Part shown: positions 30,227-60,943 of the stretch, piece by piece
Layout: each line of letters begins with the position of its first letter
How positions within the stretch are numbered: the first letter of the stretch is position 1
DNA from: a virus
IMG/VR virus record: IMGVR_UViG_2687453534_000001
DNA: 64,000 nt
Reading direction: 5' to 3' (one strand)
The notes under the pieces: generated by a model
Databases searched by the model: none
The model's input: the letters and a program-made list of their open reading frames with translations, nothing else
What the model was told of the DNA's origin: nothing
Program-made: the position numbers and the translations under genes

Positions 30227-31713
30227 CCACTGCAATCGCGCTGCCGTCGCTTCAATTGTCGAAGGACGAACAAGCCGTACTGATGGATCTGACTACTCAG
30301 CTCCAGAGGCACCAGGGCGAGAACCTGATCAAAGAGCAGTACTACGAGGCCAAGCGCCGAATGGAAGACCTAAAAATCGCCATTCCGCCAACGCTTTCCA
30401 ACCTGATGTGCTGCGTAGGTTGGCCCGCCGTCGCCGTTGACAGTCTGGTAGAGCGGCTGAACTTTGAGGGCTGGTCATACGAGGGTGACGGCGAGGACCG
30501 CGACCCGCTGGGGCTCGATGAGATCTTCCTGGAGAACGATCTCGATGTCGAGTCGGATGTCAACCACACAGACGGCCTGATGTACGGAACCTCCTTTGTG
30601 GCTGTTTCTTCCGGTCTCGATGATGAGCCTGAAGTGGTCGTGACGGTGGAGTCGCCGCGGAACATGACCGCGATCTACGACCCTCGGACGCGTCGCGCCA
30701 CCTCGGCGTTCTTGCAGATCGTTGACCGTGAGCAGCGGGTGGTAGGTGGGCGGTTGATACTGCCCAACGAAATCATCGCCCTGGAATGCGTTCCCATGGA
30801 ACTCAGCGCGGCGGGCGTGGGCAATATGCGTGTGGTCGACCGCAACAAACACAATCTAGAGCGCGTGCTTGTGGCGCAGATGATCAACCGGCCACGGTCG
30901 GGTGCGCGCGGCCGCAATGGTCACTCTGAGATCACCGAAACCCTTATCTCGCATACACAGTCGGGTATGCGGACCCTGGCCAACATGGAGGTGGCCCGCG
31001 AGTACTTGGCATCCCCGCAGCGGGCGGTGCTCGGCGCGAAGGAATCGTTCTTTGTCGGCGAGGACGGTAAGCCAGTCCCGGCGTGGAAGTCCTACATCGG
31101 CCGCATGATCGCGCTGGAGCGCGACGAGTACGGCGAGATCCCGGACATCAAGGAATTCAAGGGCGCCAGCCTGGAATCGTTCTTCGGCCAGATGCGCACC
31201 CTCAGCCAGCTCGTATCCTCCGAAATCGCAGTCCCTGCAAATTATTTGGGCTTTGAGACAGACAACCCGCCATCTGCCGACGCGATCCGGTCGCTAGAGG
31301 GTCGCCACGTCAAACGCGCAGAGCAGCGCCAGAAGACATTTGGCCGCGGCTGGTCGGAGACCGCGCGGCTGTGCGTGATGGTGCGTGAAGGCAAGAAGTT
31401 CAACGAACTGCCCGGCGAGATTCGCAAGGTACGCCCCCAGTGGCGCGACGCCGCAACGCCGACCTTCGCGGCCACATCCGACGCGGTGACCAAGCTCATC
31501 GACAAGGGCGTTTACACGCCGACATCGCGTGTCACCCGCGACAAGCTGGGAATCAGTCGGGCTGATCAGCGACAGATGGAGATTGACGATAAGAAGACGA
31601 CGGTCACGAACCTCGTCGCGTCGGTCCGTCAGGGTGTCGAGAATGCGCGCCAGGACAGCCAGGTAGCGTCCCTGGCTGACCGTAGAGCGGCATCTGTTGG
31701 CCAGCCTGGTTGA
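30223..31713 (+). CDS. Portal protein
   Basis: 496 aa following TerL with ATGA coupling. Confidence 0.85.
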   Translation: MTTAIALPSLQLSKDEQAVLMDLTTQLQRHQGENLIKEQYYEAKRRMEDLKIAIPPTLSNLMCCVGWPAVAVDSLVERLNFEGWSYEGDGEDRDPLGLDEIFLENDLDVESDVNHTDGLMYGTSFVAVSSGLDDEPEVVVTVESPRNMTAIYDPRTRRATSAFLQIVDREQRVVGGRLILPNEIIALECVPMELSAAGVGNMRVVDRNKHNLERVLVAQMINRPRSGARGRNGHSEITETLISHTQSGMRTLANMEVAREYLASPQRAVLGAKESFFVGEDGKPVPAWKSYIGRMIALERDEYGEIPDIKEFKGASLESFFGQMRTLSQLVSSEIAVPANYLGFETDNPPSADAIRSLEGRHVKRAEQRQKTFGRGWSETARLCVMVREGKKFNELPGEIRKVRPQWRDAATPTFAATSDAVTKLIDKGVYTPTSRVTRDKLGISRADQRQMEIDDKKTTVTNLVASVRQGVENARQDSQVASLADRRAASVGQPG

Positions 31714-34700
31714 GCAGGCTCAAGCGCTCCAGGGCGTTCTGGGTGATCTTACTACGCTGTCCACCAAAGATCTTGTGGGCCTGTACAAGAAGCTCGAAAG
31801 CGACGGCGCGACGGGTGCCGACCTGCTGGACGCGTTCAAGGCCGTTTTCCCCGAGGTTGTACAGCCCTACGTCGAGGCCGCATCCCAGGTCGCGAATCAG
31901 TGGTACGGGGAGCTGGCACCTGATGAGCCCTACACACCAAAAGCGGTTGACGCGATTGACGCGGTGCCACAAGACCGCATGATGAACTCGCTGGAGTGGG
32001 CGTTTCGCGCAGCTGGCACCGCTCATCCGCTGACCCGGCTGACGGGTTCGGCACAGCGCATGGTGTTCGACGGTGCTCGCGCGACGATTCTGCGCAACGC
32101 CGACGCCGAGAAGGTCAAGTACTCGCGCCTGGCGTCGCCGGGTGCGTGCGAGTTCTGCCGAGTGATGGCCACGCGCGGAGCGGTATACCGCAGCGCTCAC
32201 GCGGCGCAGGCCGGCCATGACAACTGCCATTGCGTGCCGGCTGTCGCTCGCGGAAAGCTCAAGTTCCAGCGTCCGGGGTATTACCAGGACTGGGACGCCG
32301 AGTACATCGACACGGTCAAACAGCTCGAAGCTGAGCAGATCAAGCCGACGCTCAACGCGGTCCTGTCGAAAATGCGGGCCAACGAACTGGCCGCGTCAGA
32401 CAGCGGGCCAACACTGGTAGCGATGTCTACCAAGAAGTCACCGGCGCCAGCAGACATGGCCAAGTGGCTTGATGCCGAGAAACAGCATCAGTACGACGTG
32501 TCAGCGTGGTTGTCGGCCGAGAAGAGTCACACCAAGAAGTTGGCCAAGGCCGCGGCGCAGGCCAAATACGTGGCCAAGAAGAAGGCGACCGCCGAATGGC
32601 TGGCGGCCGAGCAGCAGCACCAGGCCGACGTGTCGGCGTGGCTGGTGGCCGAGAAGGACTTCACCAAGAAGAAAGCGAAGGCGGCGGCGCAGGCCAAGTA
32701 TGTGGCCAACAAGAAGGCCGCCGCCAATACCGTCGCGTGGCTCAAAGCCGAGCAGGTCTACAACGAACAGCAGACATTGCTTGAGATGGCAGCCGAGGCA
32801 GCCAAGGCATCCGCGAAGGTCGCCGCAATGGCCAACGCGGCGGCGAACGTCGATCTCAAGAAGGCGTCCAAGGCGCTGGCGGCGGCCAAGCACGCGGCGA
32901 AGAAGAAGGGCGACACCACCAAGTACGACGCACTGGCCAAGATGACACCCGCCGAGTATGCGGCATCCAAGGGTGGGGTGGCCGCGCCGAAAGCCACGAC
33001 AACGATCACCGCGAAGGTCACCACCCCGGAGACCGCGGCGACGGCGGGCATCGGCACCGTCAGCACCGCCACCAAGCCCAAGGCTGTCGTTGGTGCGCTG
33101 ACCGACTCACCGAGCGCTCTCGCCAGCACCGGCCAGGTTCTCGGTACTCACGGCGCCACCGTGTACACCGACTCCACGTCTCAGAAGTGGTTGGTCAAGG
33201 GTCCCAAGAACCCGAATGATCAATTCCTGGTCACGCTGGATGCGGCATCCGCTGAGCTGCAAGCGAAGTCGGGCTTGACTACACCGGCGATGTACATCAT
33301 GACGGTAGGCGGCAAGCGTCAGTCCGTTCAGTACATGTTCCCCGGCAGCAAGAGTGCCTTTCCTTCTGGGGTTGACCTGTCCACAATCAGTGAACCTGAT
33401 CTGTTGACGATCCAGAAGCATCACGCGCTCGACTGGCTGATGGGTAACCACGACAGTCATGCCGGGCAGTTCATCCGTGCTGGTAGCGGTGAGATTGTCG
33501 GAATCGACAAGGGCCAAGCTTTCAAGTATTTCACCGGCGACAAGCTGGACTGGAACTATCACCCCAACGTCAAGCACGGCACGCCAGAACCCATTTACAA
33601 CACGCTGTTTCGACAGTACGCCGAAGGCAAGCCCGGTAAGTTGCTCAATCCCTCGGGCGGCGAGCTAGCGGACTACATCCAAGGTCTACAGGCGATCCCA
33701 GACAAGGAGATCCGCAACCTATTCCGGCCCTACGCCGAGGGTGCGGTCAAACAGGGAAAGCTGTTGGTCGAGGCCAACGGTAGCACTCCGACGAACAATG
33801 TTGACGCGTTCCTAGAAGCCGTTGTTGCCAGAAAGAACGGTCTCGCAAACGATCTGAGCGCGTACTACGTCAAGGCTGTCGAAAAGCGCCTGACGAAAAC
33901 CAAAGTCAAGGGTGAGGTCACCACCGTGACGCCGGGGATGACCATCACGCAGGGTGACTTCCTACCACCAACTCCGATCCCGACTGGTCCGACGCCGGTC
34001 CTGTCTGGAGACGCGCTCAAGAAGGCTGGTAAGGCGCTCGCATCAGCCAAGTACCTGGCGAAGAAGAAGGGGGACACCGCCAACTTCGCTCAACTGTCGA
34101 AGATGACACCCGAGCAATACTGGCAGATGAAGAACGGCAATGGGCCTAGCCAACCTGTTGCGGCACAGTCTGTTACGAAGCCTGCGAAGGGGACAAAGTC
34201 CGCCAAGTTACTTGAATGGGAAAAAGAATTCCTGAAGACGTCCGGGTCGAGTGGGTTCTTCCAGCCTGTCAAGGCGTACGCGGTCGAGAAGGGTATCAAG
34301 CTCTCCGAGGCCATCCCCGAATTCGACAAAGAGTTCGGTATCGCGGCGCTCACCACTGATCAGTTGGCGAACCTGCTGGGCTACTACGACGTTGGGGTCC
34401 AGACCAAATGGCTCGGCAAGTACGGTGACGCACTCGGCGACGACATGGCCAAGAATGTGCTGGACAAGCTCAAAGCCCAGGGTAACTCCAAGATCAAAGA
34501 ACCTCCGAAACCTGTTGTCATTAAACAGGGGACGAAGTACACCCCCGAGCATGAGCAGCCCGCGGGCGAGCTGGCCAAGCTCGGCAAGACGGTTATCGCC
34601 AACTCCAAGGCCCCCGTCGGATCTGCCGACAACCCGCACGTTTTCGATGCCAGCGGCAAGGCGGTTGAGTGGCAGCAGTTCGGCTCGCTGATGTCGCCAC

Positions 34701-35254
34701 AGAATGCCTCGGCTTGGAAATCCGACCAGCACAGTGCCATCAAGTCGTACACCGGCAGCGGCTACAGCACAATGAACGCACACGCTCGCGAAGACAAAGT
34801 GCCGTCAGCCAAAACCAAGGCGCTCGATTCGGCGTTCTACGAGCACAATCCGTTTGAGGAGCACATCGTGCTCAGCCGCGGTACGCACGCTGTCGAGTTC
34901 AACGACGAGAACAGTCTGGGAATGAAGTTCAGTTTCGGCGCTGACATCGATGCGCTCAAGGTGCTGGAGGGTGAGACGTACATCTCCAAGTCCTTCCTGT
35001 CCACGTCGATCACCACCACGCCGGCATTCCACAACCCGGTTCGCGTGCTCTACAAGATGAAGCCAGGTCAGCGCGGCATCTTCGTCTCGGGTACACCAGA
35101 CGGAATGGATCAACTGACCTCCGTCGGAACCCACGAGCGCGAGGTTATCCTTCCCCGTAACCAGAAGATGAAGGTGCTGGAAGTGCGCAAGTCAACCGGG
35201 TCGTCACAGTTCAAGGTTGACGTGATCGTGGAGGTGGTGGATCAACCTGTCTAA
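31697..35254 (+). CDS. MuF-like head morphogenesis protein fused to Lys/Ala-rich repeats, an atypical kinase-like segment and a C-terminal R-S-E ADP-ribosyltransferase domain
   Basis: MuF region CEFCRVMATRGAVY...HDNCHC. Repeats about 32460-32780, 32860-32980 and 34020-34140. ART motifs Y-x-x-x-x-Y..N, SRG (Arg), FLSTS (STS) and HEREV (ExE) in the last 200 aa. Confidence 0.85.
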   Translation: MASLVEQAQALQGVLGDLTTLSTKDLVGLYKKLESDGATGADLLDAFKAVFPEVVQPYVEAASQVANQWYGELAPDEPYTPKAVDAIDAVPQDRMMNSLEWAFRAAGTAHPLTRLTGSAQRMVFDGARATILRNADAEKVKYSRLASPGACEFCRVMATRGAVYRSAHAAQAGHDNCHCVPAVARGKLKFQRPGYYQDWDAEYIDTVKQLEAEQIKPTLNAVLSKMRANELAASDSGPTLVAMSTKKSPAPADMAKWLDAEKQHQYDVSAWLSAEKSHTKKLAKAAAQAKYVAKKKATAEWLAAEQQHQADVSAWLVAEKDFTKKKAKAAAQAKYVANKKAAANTVAWLKAEQVYNEQQTLLEMAAEAAKASAKVAAMANAAANVDLKKASKALAAAKHAAKKKGDTTKYDALAKMTPAEYAASKGGVAAPKATTTITAKVTTPETAATAGIGTVSTATKPKAVVGALTDSPSALASTGQVLGTHGATVYTDSTSQKWLVKGPKNPNDQFLVTLDAASAELQAKSGLTTPAMYIMTVGGKRQSVQYMFPGSKSAFPSGVDLSTISEPDLLTIQKHHALDWLMGNHDSHAGQFIRAGSGEIVGIDKGQAFKYFTGDKLDWNYHPNVKHGTPEPIYNTLFRQYAEGKPGKLLNPSGGELADYIQGLQAIPDKEIRNLFRPYAEGAVKQGKLLVEANGSTPTNNVDAFLEAVVARKNGLANDLSAYYVKAVEKRLTKTKVKGEVTTVTPGMTITQGDFLPPTPIPTGPTPVLSGDALKKAGKALASAKYLAKKKGDTANFAQLSKMTPEQYWQMKNGNGPSQPVAAQSVTKPAKGTKSAKLLEWEKEFLKTSGSSGFFQPVKAYAVEKGIKLSEAIPEFDKEFGIAALTTDQLANLLGYYDVGVQTKWLGKYGDALGDDMAKNVLDKLKAQGNSKIKEPPKPVVIKQGTKYTPEHEQPAGELAKLGKTVIANSKAPVGSADNPHVFDASGKAVEWQQFGSLMSPQNASAWKSDQHSAIKSYTGSGYSTMNAHAREDKVPSAKTKALDSAFYEHNPFEEHIVLSRGTHAVEFNDENSLGMKFSFGADIDALKVLEGETYISKSFLSTSITTTPAFHNPVRVLYKMKPGQRGIFVSGTPDGMDQLTSVGTHEREVILPRNQKMKVLEVRKSTGSSQFKVDVIVEVVDQPV

Positions 35255-35273
35255 TCCCATCCCCACACGCTGG

Positions 35274-35642
35274 TTGCCCAACGGCGTATACGACATCATC
35301 AGCGCCGAGCTGGGCGCGTTCTATGACCAGCCGGATTATCCCGGCGCACGCACTGGCGCTGGGCGTTACGTCGACCTCTTTCAGGACCCGGAGCTGGAAC
35401 ATCCAGTCGGGCGACTCTGGACCAACGACAAAGACGCCTGCGGTCTGCTGCATGTGGCAGACGGCGATGAGGTGCTGTACGCCTACGTTGCGCTATCAAT
35501 TCGTCGCGAGCTACATCAGGGGAGTGCCGCGAAGAACACCTTTGAGCACATGTGCGCAGAGTGGAATGAAGACGGCACGCTTACGACGACAAATCTCGCG
35601 GATATTGAAGACTCCGCGATTGCACTCAACGCAGACCTGTAG
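35274..35642 (+). CDS. Hypothetical acidic protein immediately downstream of the MuF-ART gene (candidate immunity/inhibitor)
   Basis: TTG start. GC3 about 70%. Followed by a strong terminator. Confidence 0.5.
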   Translation: MPNGVYDIISAELGAFYDQPDYPGARTGAGRYVDLFQDPELEHPVGRLWTNDKDACGLLHVADGDEVLYAYVALSIRRELHQGSAAKNTFEHMCAEWNEDGTLTTTNLADIEDSAIALNADL

Positions 35643-35654
35643 AACCAAATAGTT

Positions 35655-35690
35655 AAGGCCCCTAACGGGATTTCGTTAGGGGCCTTTTGC
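35655..35690. terminator. Bidirectional rho-independent terminator
   Basis: AAGGCCCCTAAC-gggatttc-GTTAGGGGCCTT followed by TTT. Confidence 0.7.
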
Positions 35691-35698
35691 GTGCCTGG

Positions 35699-35881
35699 TT
35701 ACGGATGAATTCCTTGCTCCCAGCATAGATAGAACTGGGCAACGGTCTCCGCCCATTCGACGCGGCGTTTCACACGTTTCGCGTACCACTTCGCGAACTG
35801 CTCGCCCATTTCGGCATCAACGCACGCGTTGTACCGCACCCATTCCAGCGCCTCTCGGTAGTCCTCATCCGTGGTCTTCAT
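35699..35881 (-). CDS. Small hypothetical protein (60 aa)
   Basis: MKTTDEDYREALEW... The rest of the 245-aa track ORF is antisense to the scaffold gene. Confidence 0.4.
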   Translation of the reverse strand: MKTTDEDYREALEWVRYNACVDAEMGEQFAKWYAKRVKRRVEWAETVAQFYLCWEQGIHP

Positions 35882-59498: not shown

Positions 59499-59933
59499 CT
59501 ACTGCCTGGTATCCAGTTCGGCTATGATGTCGGAGATTAGGCGACTTCCCGCCTCGATTCGATCGTGGACGCAGACAGCTCCTACACACGGGGGACCGTT
59601 GAATACCCTTTCAATCAGCCCTCCCAGTCGTGAGTCGCCAGACGCCATGTTGCCACCGAACATCGTCCACCGGCGCATCTGGAACGCCGAGAGCGGCACA
59701 AAATGCGGCAGCGCTCCGGGTAGATTTGGTCCGACAAGCACCACGGCGTTATCGCTCGTAGACTCCACAACCCGTGATCCCTCCGGTGGTGGAATCAGCT
59801 CACCGTTGAGGTCGCTCGCGATACCGACCAGTACCAGACGAGAATGCCGTGCGCTAATGCCATTCAGGGTGCAGTCAGGAAAGTCCGCGGGTCGCAAGAC
59901 CGTTAGTTCTAATCCCATCATTGTGTCAGTCAT
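59499..59933 (-). CDS. Unknown 144-aa protein translationally coupled to the ADP-ribosylglycohydrolase
   Basis: Start ATG at 59933-59931 overlaps the ARH stop (TGATG). The track ORF has a 26-aa N-terminal extension. Confidence 0.55.
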   Translation of the reverse strand: MTDTMMGLELTVLRPADFPDCTLNGISARHSRLVLVGIASDLNGELIPPPEGSRVVESTSDNAVVLVGPNLPGALPHFVPLSAFQMRRWTMFGGNMASGDSRLGGLIERVFNGPPCVGAVCVHDRIEAGSRLISDIIAELDTRQ

Positions 59934-60943
59934 CAGAACTCGTATCCTTCCGCTTCTGAAATCTCTTTCTGGTAGCGCGTTTCCAGCCGATCGAACCACT
60001 CGGCAGGCCATGGGTCGTCATACATCGCGCCGAGGATTGATCCCGCGACCGCCGCGATCGAGTCGCTGTCACCGCTCGTGACCGTCGCGCGGCGCAGCGC
60101 GGCTATCGGGTCATTGGGAAACAGATCGATGCAGAACAGCGCGCACGCCAGCGCATCGTGAGCGCGCCAGCCGGGGCCTGCGTGCTCACACGGATCGAGA
60201 TCCCACGGATCAGCACCAGCATCACGCAACTGGCGAAGTGCGATATCCGCGGTCAGCAGACGGTCCTGGACGAAGAGCAGACCGCGCGTCATGAACCGAC
60301 GCACGCCGACCTCAGCGACGACAGGGTGACCGTCGATCCAACGGTCAACATCCGTAAGTAGAGACGAATCATGATGTAGCCCAGTGCTTGCCAGATAGAT
60401 CGCCTCTTCGAGCAGCCGCCCTGGGTAGATGCTTCGCGCTTTGCGGATGATCGCTGCGGTTAAGAGCGACGCGGCGATGCCTGTCGCGCGTCCGTGGGTG
60501 GATGCTGCTTGCCACGCGGCGACCCCCTGCCAGCTGCGATCTTTGGTTACGAAAGCTGCGGGACTGACGCGCATTACCGTGCCGCATCCATCCGAGTTCA
60601 AAACGGTGGCCTTGGGCCAGGGGAAGTCGTTCTTCAACGCCCCGATAGCGCGCATGCACGTGTTGCCCGGTGCGCGGTTGTTGTCCGGGTCATCGAACCA
60701 CTTGATCCACTGATCGATGATCTTGACGCCGACCTCATCATCGGTCACATCTTTTGTGTCGTGGAGACCTCGCGCGAGCGCGAGCGTCATCTGAGTGTCG
60801 TCGCTGATGATCAGCTTCTCGGGCAGCTCTGGGCCCATTAGCCCGTTTTCGGTGAGCTGAGCGTACGACCTGAACTCATTGCGGTAGCCCCACGCATCGC
60901 CATAGGCGACACCACGGAGCACGTTGGACCATTTACTAGGCAT
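59933..60943 (-). CDS. ADP-ribosylglycohydrolase (DraG/ARH family)
   Basis: GAGGAA RBS. N-terminal GVAYGDAWGYRNEF and C-terminal GDSDSIAAVAGSILGA metal-binding motifs. Confidence 0.85.
   Translation of the reverse strand: MPSKWSNVLRGVAYGDAWGYRNEFRSYAQLTENGLMGPELPEKLIISDDTQMTLALARGLHDTKDVTDDEVGVKIIDQWIKWFDDPDNNRAPGNTCMRAIGALKNDFPWPKATVLNSDGCGTVMRVSPAAFVTKDRSWQGVAAWQAASTHGRATGIAASLLTAAIIRKARSIYPGRLLEEAIYLASTGLHHDSSLLTDVDRWIDGHPVVAEVGVRRFMTRGLLFVQDRLLTADIALRQLRDAGADPWDLDPCEHAGPGWRAHDALACALFCIDLFPNDPIAALRRATVTSGDSDSIAAVAGSILGAMYDDPWPAEWFDRLETRYQKEISEAEGYEF

Follow-up and report, generated by a model that had tools for sequence, protein, structure and literature searches.

The 64,000-nucleotide stretch of viral DNA analysed here (the window) is the prophage McProf of Mycobacterium chelonae ATCC 35752 (BK061309.1); the region 34500–36100 matches it at 100% identity (megablast), and adding 942 to a position of the McProf record gives the position in the window. 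An open reading frame (ORF) singled out by an earlier sequence-only reading, which had placed it where the immunity protein of a toxin would be expected, is gp55 of McProf, a "hypothetical protein" in GenBank. It is preceded by gp54 and followed by the small convergent gp56, beyond which come the genes for scaffolding and the major capsid (Table 1). Neither gp54 nor gp55 is discussed in the publications that cover McProf and the MabR group (PMC9434293, PMC8191103).

Table 1. Features of the gp54–gp55 locus and of the distant hydrolase gene gp86 (positions in the window)
Feature	Position	Strand	Description and basis
gp54	31697–35254	+	minor capsid MuF/VG15 protein with C-terminal ADP-ribosyltransferase (ART) toxin domain, 1185 aa (Pfam, BK061309.1)
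ART domain of gp54	34715–35254	+	aa 1007–1185; proposed partner of gp55; intact R / S-T-S / E-x-E set
GGAGGTGGTGG	35230–35240	+	Shine-Dalgarno-like; within the last ART codons (V-E-V-V), 6 nt 5′ of CTG
gp55, coding region as proposed	35247–35642	+	CTG start, 131 codons plus stop, 8-nt overlap with the gp54 stop
gp55, as annotated and flagged	35274–35642	+	TTG start, 122 aa (GenBank)
Hairpin	35655–35686		14 bp, GC-rich, terminator-like; between convergent gp55 and gp56
gp56	35699–35839	−	small convergent gene (McProf annotation); neighbour, outside the pair
gp86	59933–60943	−	ADP-ribosylglycohydrolase (PF03747, E = 6.1e-49)

The protein encoded by gp54 combines an N-terminal MuF-like domain (PF25310, VG15; aa 7–203, E = 5.7e-37) with a C-terminal ADPrib_exo_Tox domain (PF03496; aa 1007–1176, E = 4.7e-16), in keeping with its GenBank label [quoted passage not shown]. 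The motifs LSRG, STS and HEREV are conserved in the McProf ART and in all 13 other ARTs found paired with a gp55 homologue (alignment of 14 domains), and the gp54 ART is thus predicted to be catalytically competent, so that the cell producing it would need protection. The domain also matches the Alt-like phrog_802, and a tblastn search finds, in addition, the Alt protein of Acinetobacter phage Ac42.

The composition of gp55 is as the sequence-only reading had described it, that is, a 122-aa ORF with a third-position GC content near 70% (0.68) and an acidic product (pI 4.2; 22 Asp+Glu versus 7 Lys+Arg). Conservation in related prophages bearing a MuF-ART gene, the absence of which that reading had named as refuting, was found: the frame is free of indels across four sister M. 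abscessus prophages, and comparison with the sister prophages gives dN/dS values of 0.11–0.25 at dS of 0.5–1.6, which identifies gp55 as a real gene under purifying selection. It is absent from the list of genes expressed in the McProf lysogen (PMC8191103), which is consistent with late co-expression alongside gp54.

Downstream, gp55 is separated from gp56 by a hairpin with a predicted folding energy of −30.1 kcal/mol (z = −5.4; 0 of 200 shuffled sequences were equally stable), which is kept in five of five MabR prophages. A scan for consensus terminators left it uncalled because its T-run comprises only four bases; a conserved 14-bp hairpin of this stability between convergent genes nevertheless agrees with the strong terminator proposed earlier to close the ORF. 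The convergent gp56 is weakly expressed in the McProf lysogen (PMC8191103), and the remaining four MabR prophages have no annotated reverse-strand gene in that place.

The annotated beginning of gp55 has to be revised. The TTG at 35274 cannot be a conserved start since three of eight MabR sequences have another codon there (CTC in prophiFVLQ01-1 and L016, CTA in prophiFSQJ01-1); the TTG aligns to an invariant interior leucine of the family (W9-L10, invariant across lineages). The gp54 stop codon occupies 35252–35254, which leaves 19 nt, not the 20 given before, between it and the TTG, and this supposedly intergenic stretch encodes, in frame at 35256–35276, the N-terminal family motif PIPTRWL (PIPxRWL). 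Distant homologues begin with M-T-Y-P-I-P-T-R-W-L or similar, where the McProf frame encodes N-P-I-P-T-R-W-L, and residues 1–10 of gp55 are modelled with a pLDDT of 83 by AF2. Further upstream the reading frame of gp55 stays open as far back as 35226, nine codons overlapping the end of gp54, and within this open part no ATG, GTG or TTG precedes the TTG in four of five MabR genomes.

Across the eight MabR sequences only two start candidates are kept throughout, ATC 35241 and CTG 35247, and both are directly preceded by GGAGGTGGTGG, which is likewise invariant in the eight. Outside MabR the lineages have an ATG or GTG of their own a few nucleotides from the ART stop; in Sixama, Morgana, L023 and Trixie this codon of the downstream gene is preceded by a GGAGG lying in the conserved VEV codons, and Mycolicibacterium sp. 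XJ870 has GGTGGAG at the equivalent position. The XJ870 junction reads GTGGTGGAGCAAC-ATG-CCT-AG and that of McProf GTGGTGGATCAAC-CTG-TCT-AA; because the two align, the McProf CTG occupies the exact place of the XJ870 ATG. Also, the tblastn alignments of two distant family members (P0020 and P0021) start at position 34305 of the record, which is 35247 of the window. From this arrangement gp55 is most likely translated from the near-cognate CTG at 35247, which gives an 8-nt overlap with the gp54 stop, and the layout of the junction looks like a design for translational coupling. The GenBank starts of gp55 and of its MabR homologues are therefore probably wrong. In prophiFSQJ01-1, where the codon equivalent to TTG is CTA, the frame has for this reason been annotated as two spurious small genes, and its gp55 and gp56 are probably one gene, wrongly split. 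A conserved start other than ATG, GTG or TTG in mycobacteria would be a notable side finding in its own right.

gp55 belongs to a small unnamed family of actinobacteria and actinophages. When 1.84 billion cluster representatives were searched exhaustively with a HMMER profile, 47 hits were returned, three of which are spurious Ig-repeat proteins; nearly all of the remaining ones are 100–160 aa long and carry the PxPxRWL motif within the first ten residues. Among 50,697 phage records, 15 contain a gene of the family (tblastn). A profile built from an alignment of six sequences found no relative across genome contigs and only three more MabR-like prophages across viral contigs. The earlier statement that the protein has no recognizable homology stands as far as named families are concerned: Pfam yielded no family for gp55 at E up to 0.1 and no recurrent one for 38 family members at E up to 1, NCBIfam gave no match above noise, the profile search against PDB sequences found no relative, and PADLOC returned nothing for gp55 and the 38 members. 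It does not stand for phage orthologous groups, where gp55 has a match in phrog_9543 (function unknown; E = 1.5e-7). With an alignment of 19 sequences AF2 produced a compact and confident fold (pLDDT 87.7, pTM 0.83), which was used in place of the model from only six sequences (pLDDT 44, unusable). In gp55 no DNA-binding domain of the kinds found in type II antitoxins (HTH, RHH, AbrB) was detected; such a role was also rejected since the protein is strongly acidic and its gene lies inside a late structural operon and not in a stand-alone two-gene module.

The sequence-only reading had proposed that conservation of the ORF be sought specifically downstream of ART-bearing genes, and the outcome was positive, with carriers beyond MuF proteins. 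In 11 lineages, gp55 homologues (25–51% identity) are encoded directly 3′ of a C-terminal PF03496 ART and on the same strand, the spacing ranging from an overlap of 4–13 nt to a gap of 24 nt. The pairing is seen in eight MabR prophages; for the other phage groups the flanking annotation was read in one phage each, namely Leopard (gp15/gp16, where stop and start adjoin without a gap), and the Gordonia phages Sixama (gp75/gp76, 1-nt gap) and Morgana (gp142/gp143, 4-nt overlap), the upstream gene being annotated as ADP-ribosyltransferase in all three. In the Mycobacterium phages Onyinye and Aikoy (Leopard group) and the Gordonia phages Aleemily, ObLaDi and Cafasso (Morgana group) the tblastn match falls under the equivalent gene, and in Aleemily the preceding gene is likewise annotated as ADP-ribosyltransferase. 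The carriers of Leopard, Sixama and Morgana (1340, 1285 and 513 aa) have PF03496 at their extreme C-terminus and no detectable MuF domain; apart from the 513-aa ART of Morgana, non-MuF phage carriers span 946–1340 aa. Metagenomic phage contigs (L018, L020, L021, L023, L029/L030 and L031) encode a family member directly after a PF03496 domain, and the ART-then-partner layout applies to the metagenomic members P0056, P0059, P0042, P0037, P0053 and P0054. A remote clade is represented by Trixie gp3 (phrog_4491), which aligns to the family profile (hhalign probability 86.5%, E = 4.5e-6) and follows gp2, the free-standing 252-aa ART toxin of cluster A mycobacteriophages.

The closest homologue outside MabR (P0007, 51% identity to gp55) is chromosomal. 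In Mycolicibacterium sp. XJ870 its gene shares 8 nt with the 3′ end of the gene for a 6354-aa protein, which is marked as a type VII polymorphic toxin by WXG100_2, SecA-like and ADPrib_exo_Tox domains and has three ARTs in its last 2001 residues. Between McProf and XJ870 the ARTs (the third and last in XJ870) share 49% identity and the partners 51%, while the carriers are unrelated. A 101-aa ORF following the XJ870 toxin was considered as a second immunity gene and discarded, as it falls outside the family (hhalign probability 0.9%). Since the carriers include MuF proteins, phage proteins without MuF, and a WXG100 toxin, the pair behaves like the cassette expected of a toxin and its immunity protein; the partner tracks the toxin domain and not the delivery domain, as would a cassette moving between unrelated platforms. 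A function in head assembly was rejected, as the family follows ARTs in nonstructural regions (Morgana, Trixie) and on a bacterial chromosome.

ART and partner have also diverged together. Similarity of the ARTs and of the partners correlates with a Spearman coefficient of 0.82 over all 91 pairs, and of 0.70 when MabR is reduced to a single representative (10 independent pairs; in a Mantel test 1 of 5000 permutations was as high); a mirror-tree correlation of this kind could also come from simple linkage.

The immunity-protein position assigned to the ORF at the outset is thus backed by ART pairing in 11 lineages, by co-divergence and by the precedent of the Bxa toxin and its binder Bsi (see below), with binding and neutralization as predictions. 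Considering gene order, the spread of the cassette and this analogy together, gp55 is probably the cognate, nonenzymatic immunity protein, that is, an inhibitor, of the arginine-type (R-S-ExE) ART of gp54. It would be made from the late structural mRNA, its translation coupled to that of gp54: ribosomes completing gp54 would encounter the GGAGG within the final ART codons and initiate at CTG 35247, the layout being seen and the use of CTG inferred from it. The acidic alpha/beta protein of about 14 kDa would then bind the ART, probably over the cleft for NAD+ and substrate, and keep the toxin silent in the cell producing virions; it is synteny, cassette co-transfer, co-divergence and the Bxa–Bsi precedent that point to this binding step. 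gp54 would enter the head by means of its MuF domain and reach the next host along with the DNA; there the ART would act free of inhibitor, as suggested by published work on ARTs packaged in phage heads and on MuF toxins. Against gp55 as an immunity protein, a weak CTG (or ATC) start sits uneasily with the one-to-one match to a toxin expected of such a protein, and a tightly bound gp55 would need to be removed before or during packaging.

Not every member of the family is found next to an ART. About a third of the family lineages (five or six) have none within 5–8 kb, and neither an ART HMM applied to six-frame translations of these loci (L006–L010, L019 and L028) nor a Pfam search of the genes neighbouring the orphan copies detected one. 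Several orphans (L006–8 and L028) lie beside integrases of prophages or mobile elements; P0051 adjoins an integrase fragment, and P0005, which follows a 152-aa ORF of unknown function, adjoins an integrase in L006. P0004 is located near a pair of TacA and acetyltransferase genes. P0055 and P0006 are each encoded directly 3′ of a DUF499 ATPase; PADLOC identifies the one in L019 as HmaC of the Hma defence system (E = 5e-259). Orphan copies come directly after the HmaC ATPase in Hma defence loci of two independent clades (L019 and L010). In-frame N-terminal fusions of the family domain occur in P0006, P0008, P0051, P0052 and P0034. The first four of these have about 65 additional residues forming an N-terminal domain that resembled HicB by eye; Pfam and PDB sequence searches gave no support, and the idea was dropped. 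In P0034 the gp55-like domain forms the C-terminus of a GIY-YIG defence nuclease similar to PD-T4-3; this fusion carries little weight because it is a singleton and relatives of 340–430 aa are without the domain. Conversely, no family member is detectable downstream of the ART in Microbacterium phage Cicada and Gordonia phage GMA2, among others. Orphan immunity genes are normal in polymorphic toxin systems and, for this reason, neither the orphans nor the unpaired ARTs contradict an immunity function of gp55, although the orphans do not prove it either. A further and more speculative idea, built on the orphans and considered unlikely, is that bacteria and prophages have captured the fold of gp55, as a mobile unit that binds ARTs, for use against ARTs delivered from phage capsids. 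If so, the orphans would neutralize the injected ART of a superinfecting phage, or sense the ART and trigger an effector, and this would constitute a principle of defence directed at an ejected virion protein.

Strict synteny and co-divergence are expected of any obligate partner, and gp55 could accordingly be an accessory of the ART, either as a chaperone for folding or packaging, or as an activator or specificity subunit, which might even be co-packaged. For a dedicated chaperone of an ART toxin there is a precedent in TrxA, which serves TreX (PMC11606950), and the weak CTG start fits a substoichiometric helper better than an inhibitor. However, the partner follows the ART regardless of whether the latter resides on a MuF protein, on a WXG100/type VII toxin or is free-standing (252–513 aa); as it is the ART domain that is followed and not the delivery domain, a chaperone for packaging or secretion is unlikely. 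In addition, orphans without an ART in defence loci and beside prophage integrases suit an inhibitor and not an activator. An accessory role as a whole is therefore considered unlikely.

The same orphan copies, together with the fact that no family member has an assigned function, could be taken to indicate that gp55 does something unrelated to the ART, such as anti-defence or host takeover, and merely travels along with it. We regard this as improbable, because immediate, coupled adjacency recurs in 11 lineages, in unrelated genomes and with unrelated carriers, and, like the co-divergence of ART and partner, is hard to explain by hitch-hiking.

Enzymatic immunity toward R-S-E ARTs is known (Imm-ADP-RGHD, PMC3482391; BAH, PMC11699363), and the gp55 family has a conserved polar motif, LWTND-x-D-G-C-G-L, which would be compatible with an enzyme acting to undo or forestall the modification, be it a new type of ADP-ribosyl hydrolase or an enzyme related to NAD+. 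No enzyme-like match was obtained for the AF2 model of gp55, though, and the hydrolase fold with catalytic residues that would mark it as an ADP-ribosylglycohydrolase, macro or NADAR protein was not found in it; this function is very improbable. That gp55 is a C-terminal extension of gp54, produced by programmed +1 ribosomal frameshifting ahead of the gp54 stop, would account for the nine open codons over the gp54 end lacking a conserved ATG, GTG or TTG and would find a parallel in the in-frame fusions of the family domain, but is very improbable since CAA CCT GTC TAA holds no recognizable +1 slippery site, all other lineages start from an ATG or GTG of their own near the ART stop, and the McProf CTG sits at the position of the XJ870 ATG with a GGAGG-type site 6 nt upstream.

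Inhibition of the gp54 ART by gp55 may not be the only protection encoded by McProf. Homologues of the glycohydrolase gp86 are rare (28 of 50,697 phage records), and of the 15 records that contain a member of the gp55 family 11 have one, these 11 representing three of the four phage lineages; gp86 has been described as common to all MabR genomes and unique to that cluster (PMC9434293). By analogy to BAH (see below), it is a candidate for a second, enzymatic immunity toward the gp54 ART and, going by its co-occurrence with the family, would probably form a layer which erases the modification.

Were the proposed role of gp55 confirmed, the family would be the first immunity (inhibitor) family for the Alt/VIP2-type ADP-ribosyltransferases of actinobacteria and their phages, and one common to capsid-delivered MuF toxins and WXG100 toxins secreted by type VII systems. 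The locus would offer a system for asking what capsid-packaged toxins give to a temperate phage and how they are silenced during assembly, and the inhibitor would be a ready-made reagent for cloning and studying ART domains that are otherwise toxic. Perhaps the side findings are worthier of attention than the main one, namely the noncanonical start, the linkage of ART, inhibitor and hydrolase, and the orphans in defence loci.

Among known systems, T4 Alt, which is packaged in the head and injected, is an ART of the Alt/VIP2 type delivered together with the DNA, as predicted for gp54, and differs from gp54 in not being fused to MuF. To our knowledge, no dedicated inhibitor gene has been described for T4 Alt. 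Fusions of MuF with Alt/VIP2 domains are considered head-packaged, injected effectors (Iyer et al. 2022, PMC9503650). For R-S-E ARTs (Tox-ART-RSE) the immunity families Imm41 and Imm-ADP-RGHD have been listed (Zhang et al. 2012, PMC3482391); that scheme shares with the present one the R-S-E clade, the presence of nonenzymatic as well as ARH-type immunity and, among its trafficking modes, type VII (WXG) delivery. By profile gp55 matches neither of the two; it is not a detectable member of Imm41, as Imm families are contained in Pfam and gp55 has no match there; nor did it match a SUKH-type immunity protein or any Pfam Imm profile significantly.

MuF polymorphic toxins, a group defined by Jamet et al. 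(2017, PMC5576092), are followed by an ORF of less than 150 aa in 89% of 191 cases, which was proposed to encode immunity; 14% of the toxins are ARTs. These toxins, and likewise the Apk2/Tis1/Aph1 system, have in common with gp54 and gp55 the MuF N-terminus, the variable C-terminal toxin and the small downstream ORF. In one case a cassette of MuF toxin and ORF is shared with the unrelated secreted toxin MafB (Jamet et al. 2017, BMC Biol, PMC5576092), which parallels the sharing of the McProf cassette with the WXG100 toxin of XJ870. Whereas that work defined no immunity families, gp55 represents a specific family with its own predicted fold, and unlike the set analysed there, this family is found mostly in actinophages of the lytic type and metagenomic phage contigs, with prophages in addition.

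The closest tested system to gp54, gp55 and gp86 is that of Bxa, Bsi and BAH from the Bacteroides stercoris prophage PhiBxa. Bxa, also a MuF-ART, is arginine-specific (Alexei et al. 2024, J Biol Chem, PMC11699363). Two proteins neutralize it, namely Bsi (Bxa structural immunity), which is small, binds Bxa and has been modelled in its active site, and BAH, an ARH1-like hydrolase that reverses the ADP-ribosylation (PMC11699363). The two systems differ in the phylum of the host and in that the gp55 family also occurs with a type VII (WXG100) toxin and with phage proteins other than MuF. The resemblance of gp55 to Bsi (BACSTE_RS09450) is functional and positional only, the role of gp55 being predicted and that of Bsi experimental. 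In both, an N-terminal MuF part for targeting to the capsid and a C-terminal ART are joined in one protein of the head-morphogenesis module (Bxa; gp54 in McProf), a small ORF for which no enzymatic function is predicted is adjacent (Bsi; gp55), and a hydrolase is present (BAH; gp86), so that McProf, if the role of gp55 is confirmed, would provide a tractable mycobacterial counterpart with a writer, a blocker and an eraser of the modification.

The start of gp55, the small acidic gene following gp54 in prophage McProf and predicted to encode the immunity protein of the gp54 ADP-ribosyltransferase (ART) domain, is probably misplaced in GenBank (window 35226-35276 region); among McProf and its sister prophages (the MabR sequences), CTG and ATC are the only start candidates kept in 8 of 8. 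Annotation of the sisters is affected as well: gp55 and gp56 of prophiFSQJ01-1 are a single intact gene that was mis-split, and the start annotated in prophiFVLQ01-1 is an upstream TTG which is not conserved. In McProf itself, gp56 is a reverse-oriented insertion, reported as weakly expressed in the lysogen (PMC8191103); a search for a family match returned none, and the annotations of the four remaining MabR prophages show no reverse-strand gene here.

Features discussed, with coordinates in the window or in the locus (L) named
Feature	Location	Strand	Description
gp56	window 35699-35839	-	46-aa gene between gp55 and the scaffolding gene
gp86	window 59933-60943	-	ADP-ribosylglycohydrolase (PF03747, E = 6e-49)
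gp54, Lys/Ala-rich segment	window about 32400-33000		aa about 240-430
gp54, middle	window about 33134-33856		aa about 480-720
Trixie gp2-gp3	L024 1367-2427		Mycobacterium phage Trixie, cluster A
XJ870 toxin	L017 1-6008		WXG100_2 / SecA-like polymorphic toxin, 6354 aa; Mycolicibacterium sp. XJ870, JBEFTI010000003.1
prophiFSQJ01-1 gp55 + gp56	L005 4425-4883		mis-split gene
DUF499 ATPase and orphan gp55-family gene	L019 2581-6399		ATPase is HmaC
DUF499 ATPase and orphan gp55-family gene	L010 1-2966		

Carriers of the ART domain differ in type. The XJ870 toxin bears three tandem ART domains within its last 2001 residues and is followed by only one gp55-family gene; the 101-aa ORF coming next is not a member of the family. 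In Trixie, the toxin (gp2) is a free-standing VIP2-like ART, homologs of which occur in many other cluster A phages, followed by gp3 (101 aa, phrog_4491), a remote homolog of gp55 whose RefSeq name, "VIP2 protein", appears to be a mislabel.

Orphans, that is, gp55-family genes with no ART nearby, were found directly 3′ of a DUF499 ATPase gene at two loci, representing two clades; the ATPase in L019, which has a DUF1156 gene upstream of it, is the Hma defence protein HmaC, and the one in L010 matched DUF499 only. A gp55-like domain also forms the C-terminal part (aa 477-603) of P0034, a PD-T4-3-like GIY-YIG defence nuclease of 618 aa on a 9.3-kb Logan contig. This is a single occurrence; the relatives of P0034 are devoid of the domain and some have a TY-Chap domain (PF22552) in its place. 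Four family members (P0006, P0008, P0051, P0052) constitute a sub-clade with an added conserved N-terminal domain (about 65-70 aa, motif GCWLVRVP...), for which searches of Pfam and PDB returned nothing.

The middle of gp54, the MuF minor capsid protein, resembles by eye a HipA / PI3K-type kinase core (DWLMGNHDSHAGQF...IDKGQAF). Matches to HipA_C are weak (E = 0.21; E = 0.002 for the ART-bearing Leopard gp15). A second enzymatic domain may lie here, which would make gp54 a polyvalent effector. The Lys/Ala-rich segment of gp54 is repetitive, with near-duplicate blocks: WLxAExxHxxDVSAWLxAEKxxTKKxAKAAAQAKYVAxKKA, and KKAxKALAxAKxxAKKKGDTxxxxxLxKMTPxxY in two copies.

Homologs of gp86 are rare among phages, turning up in 28 of 50,697 records; even so, 11 of the 15 records with a gp55-family gene have one, which suggests that writer, inhibitor, and eraser of ADP-ribosylation form a linked set. 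With this proposed set, McProf would resemble the Bxa-Bsi-BAH system of a Bacteroides prophage, where a MuF-ART toxin, a small binder, and a hydrolase are likewise combined.
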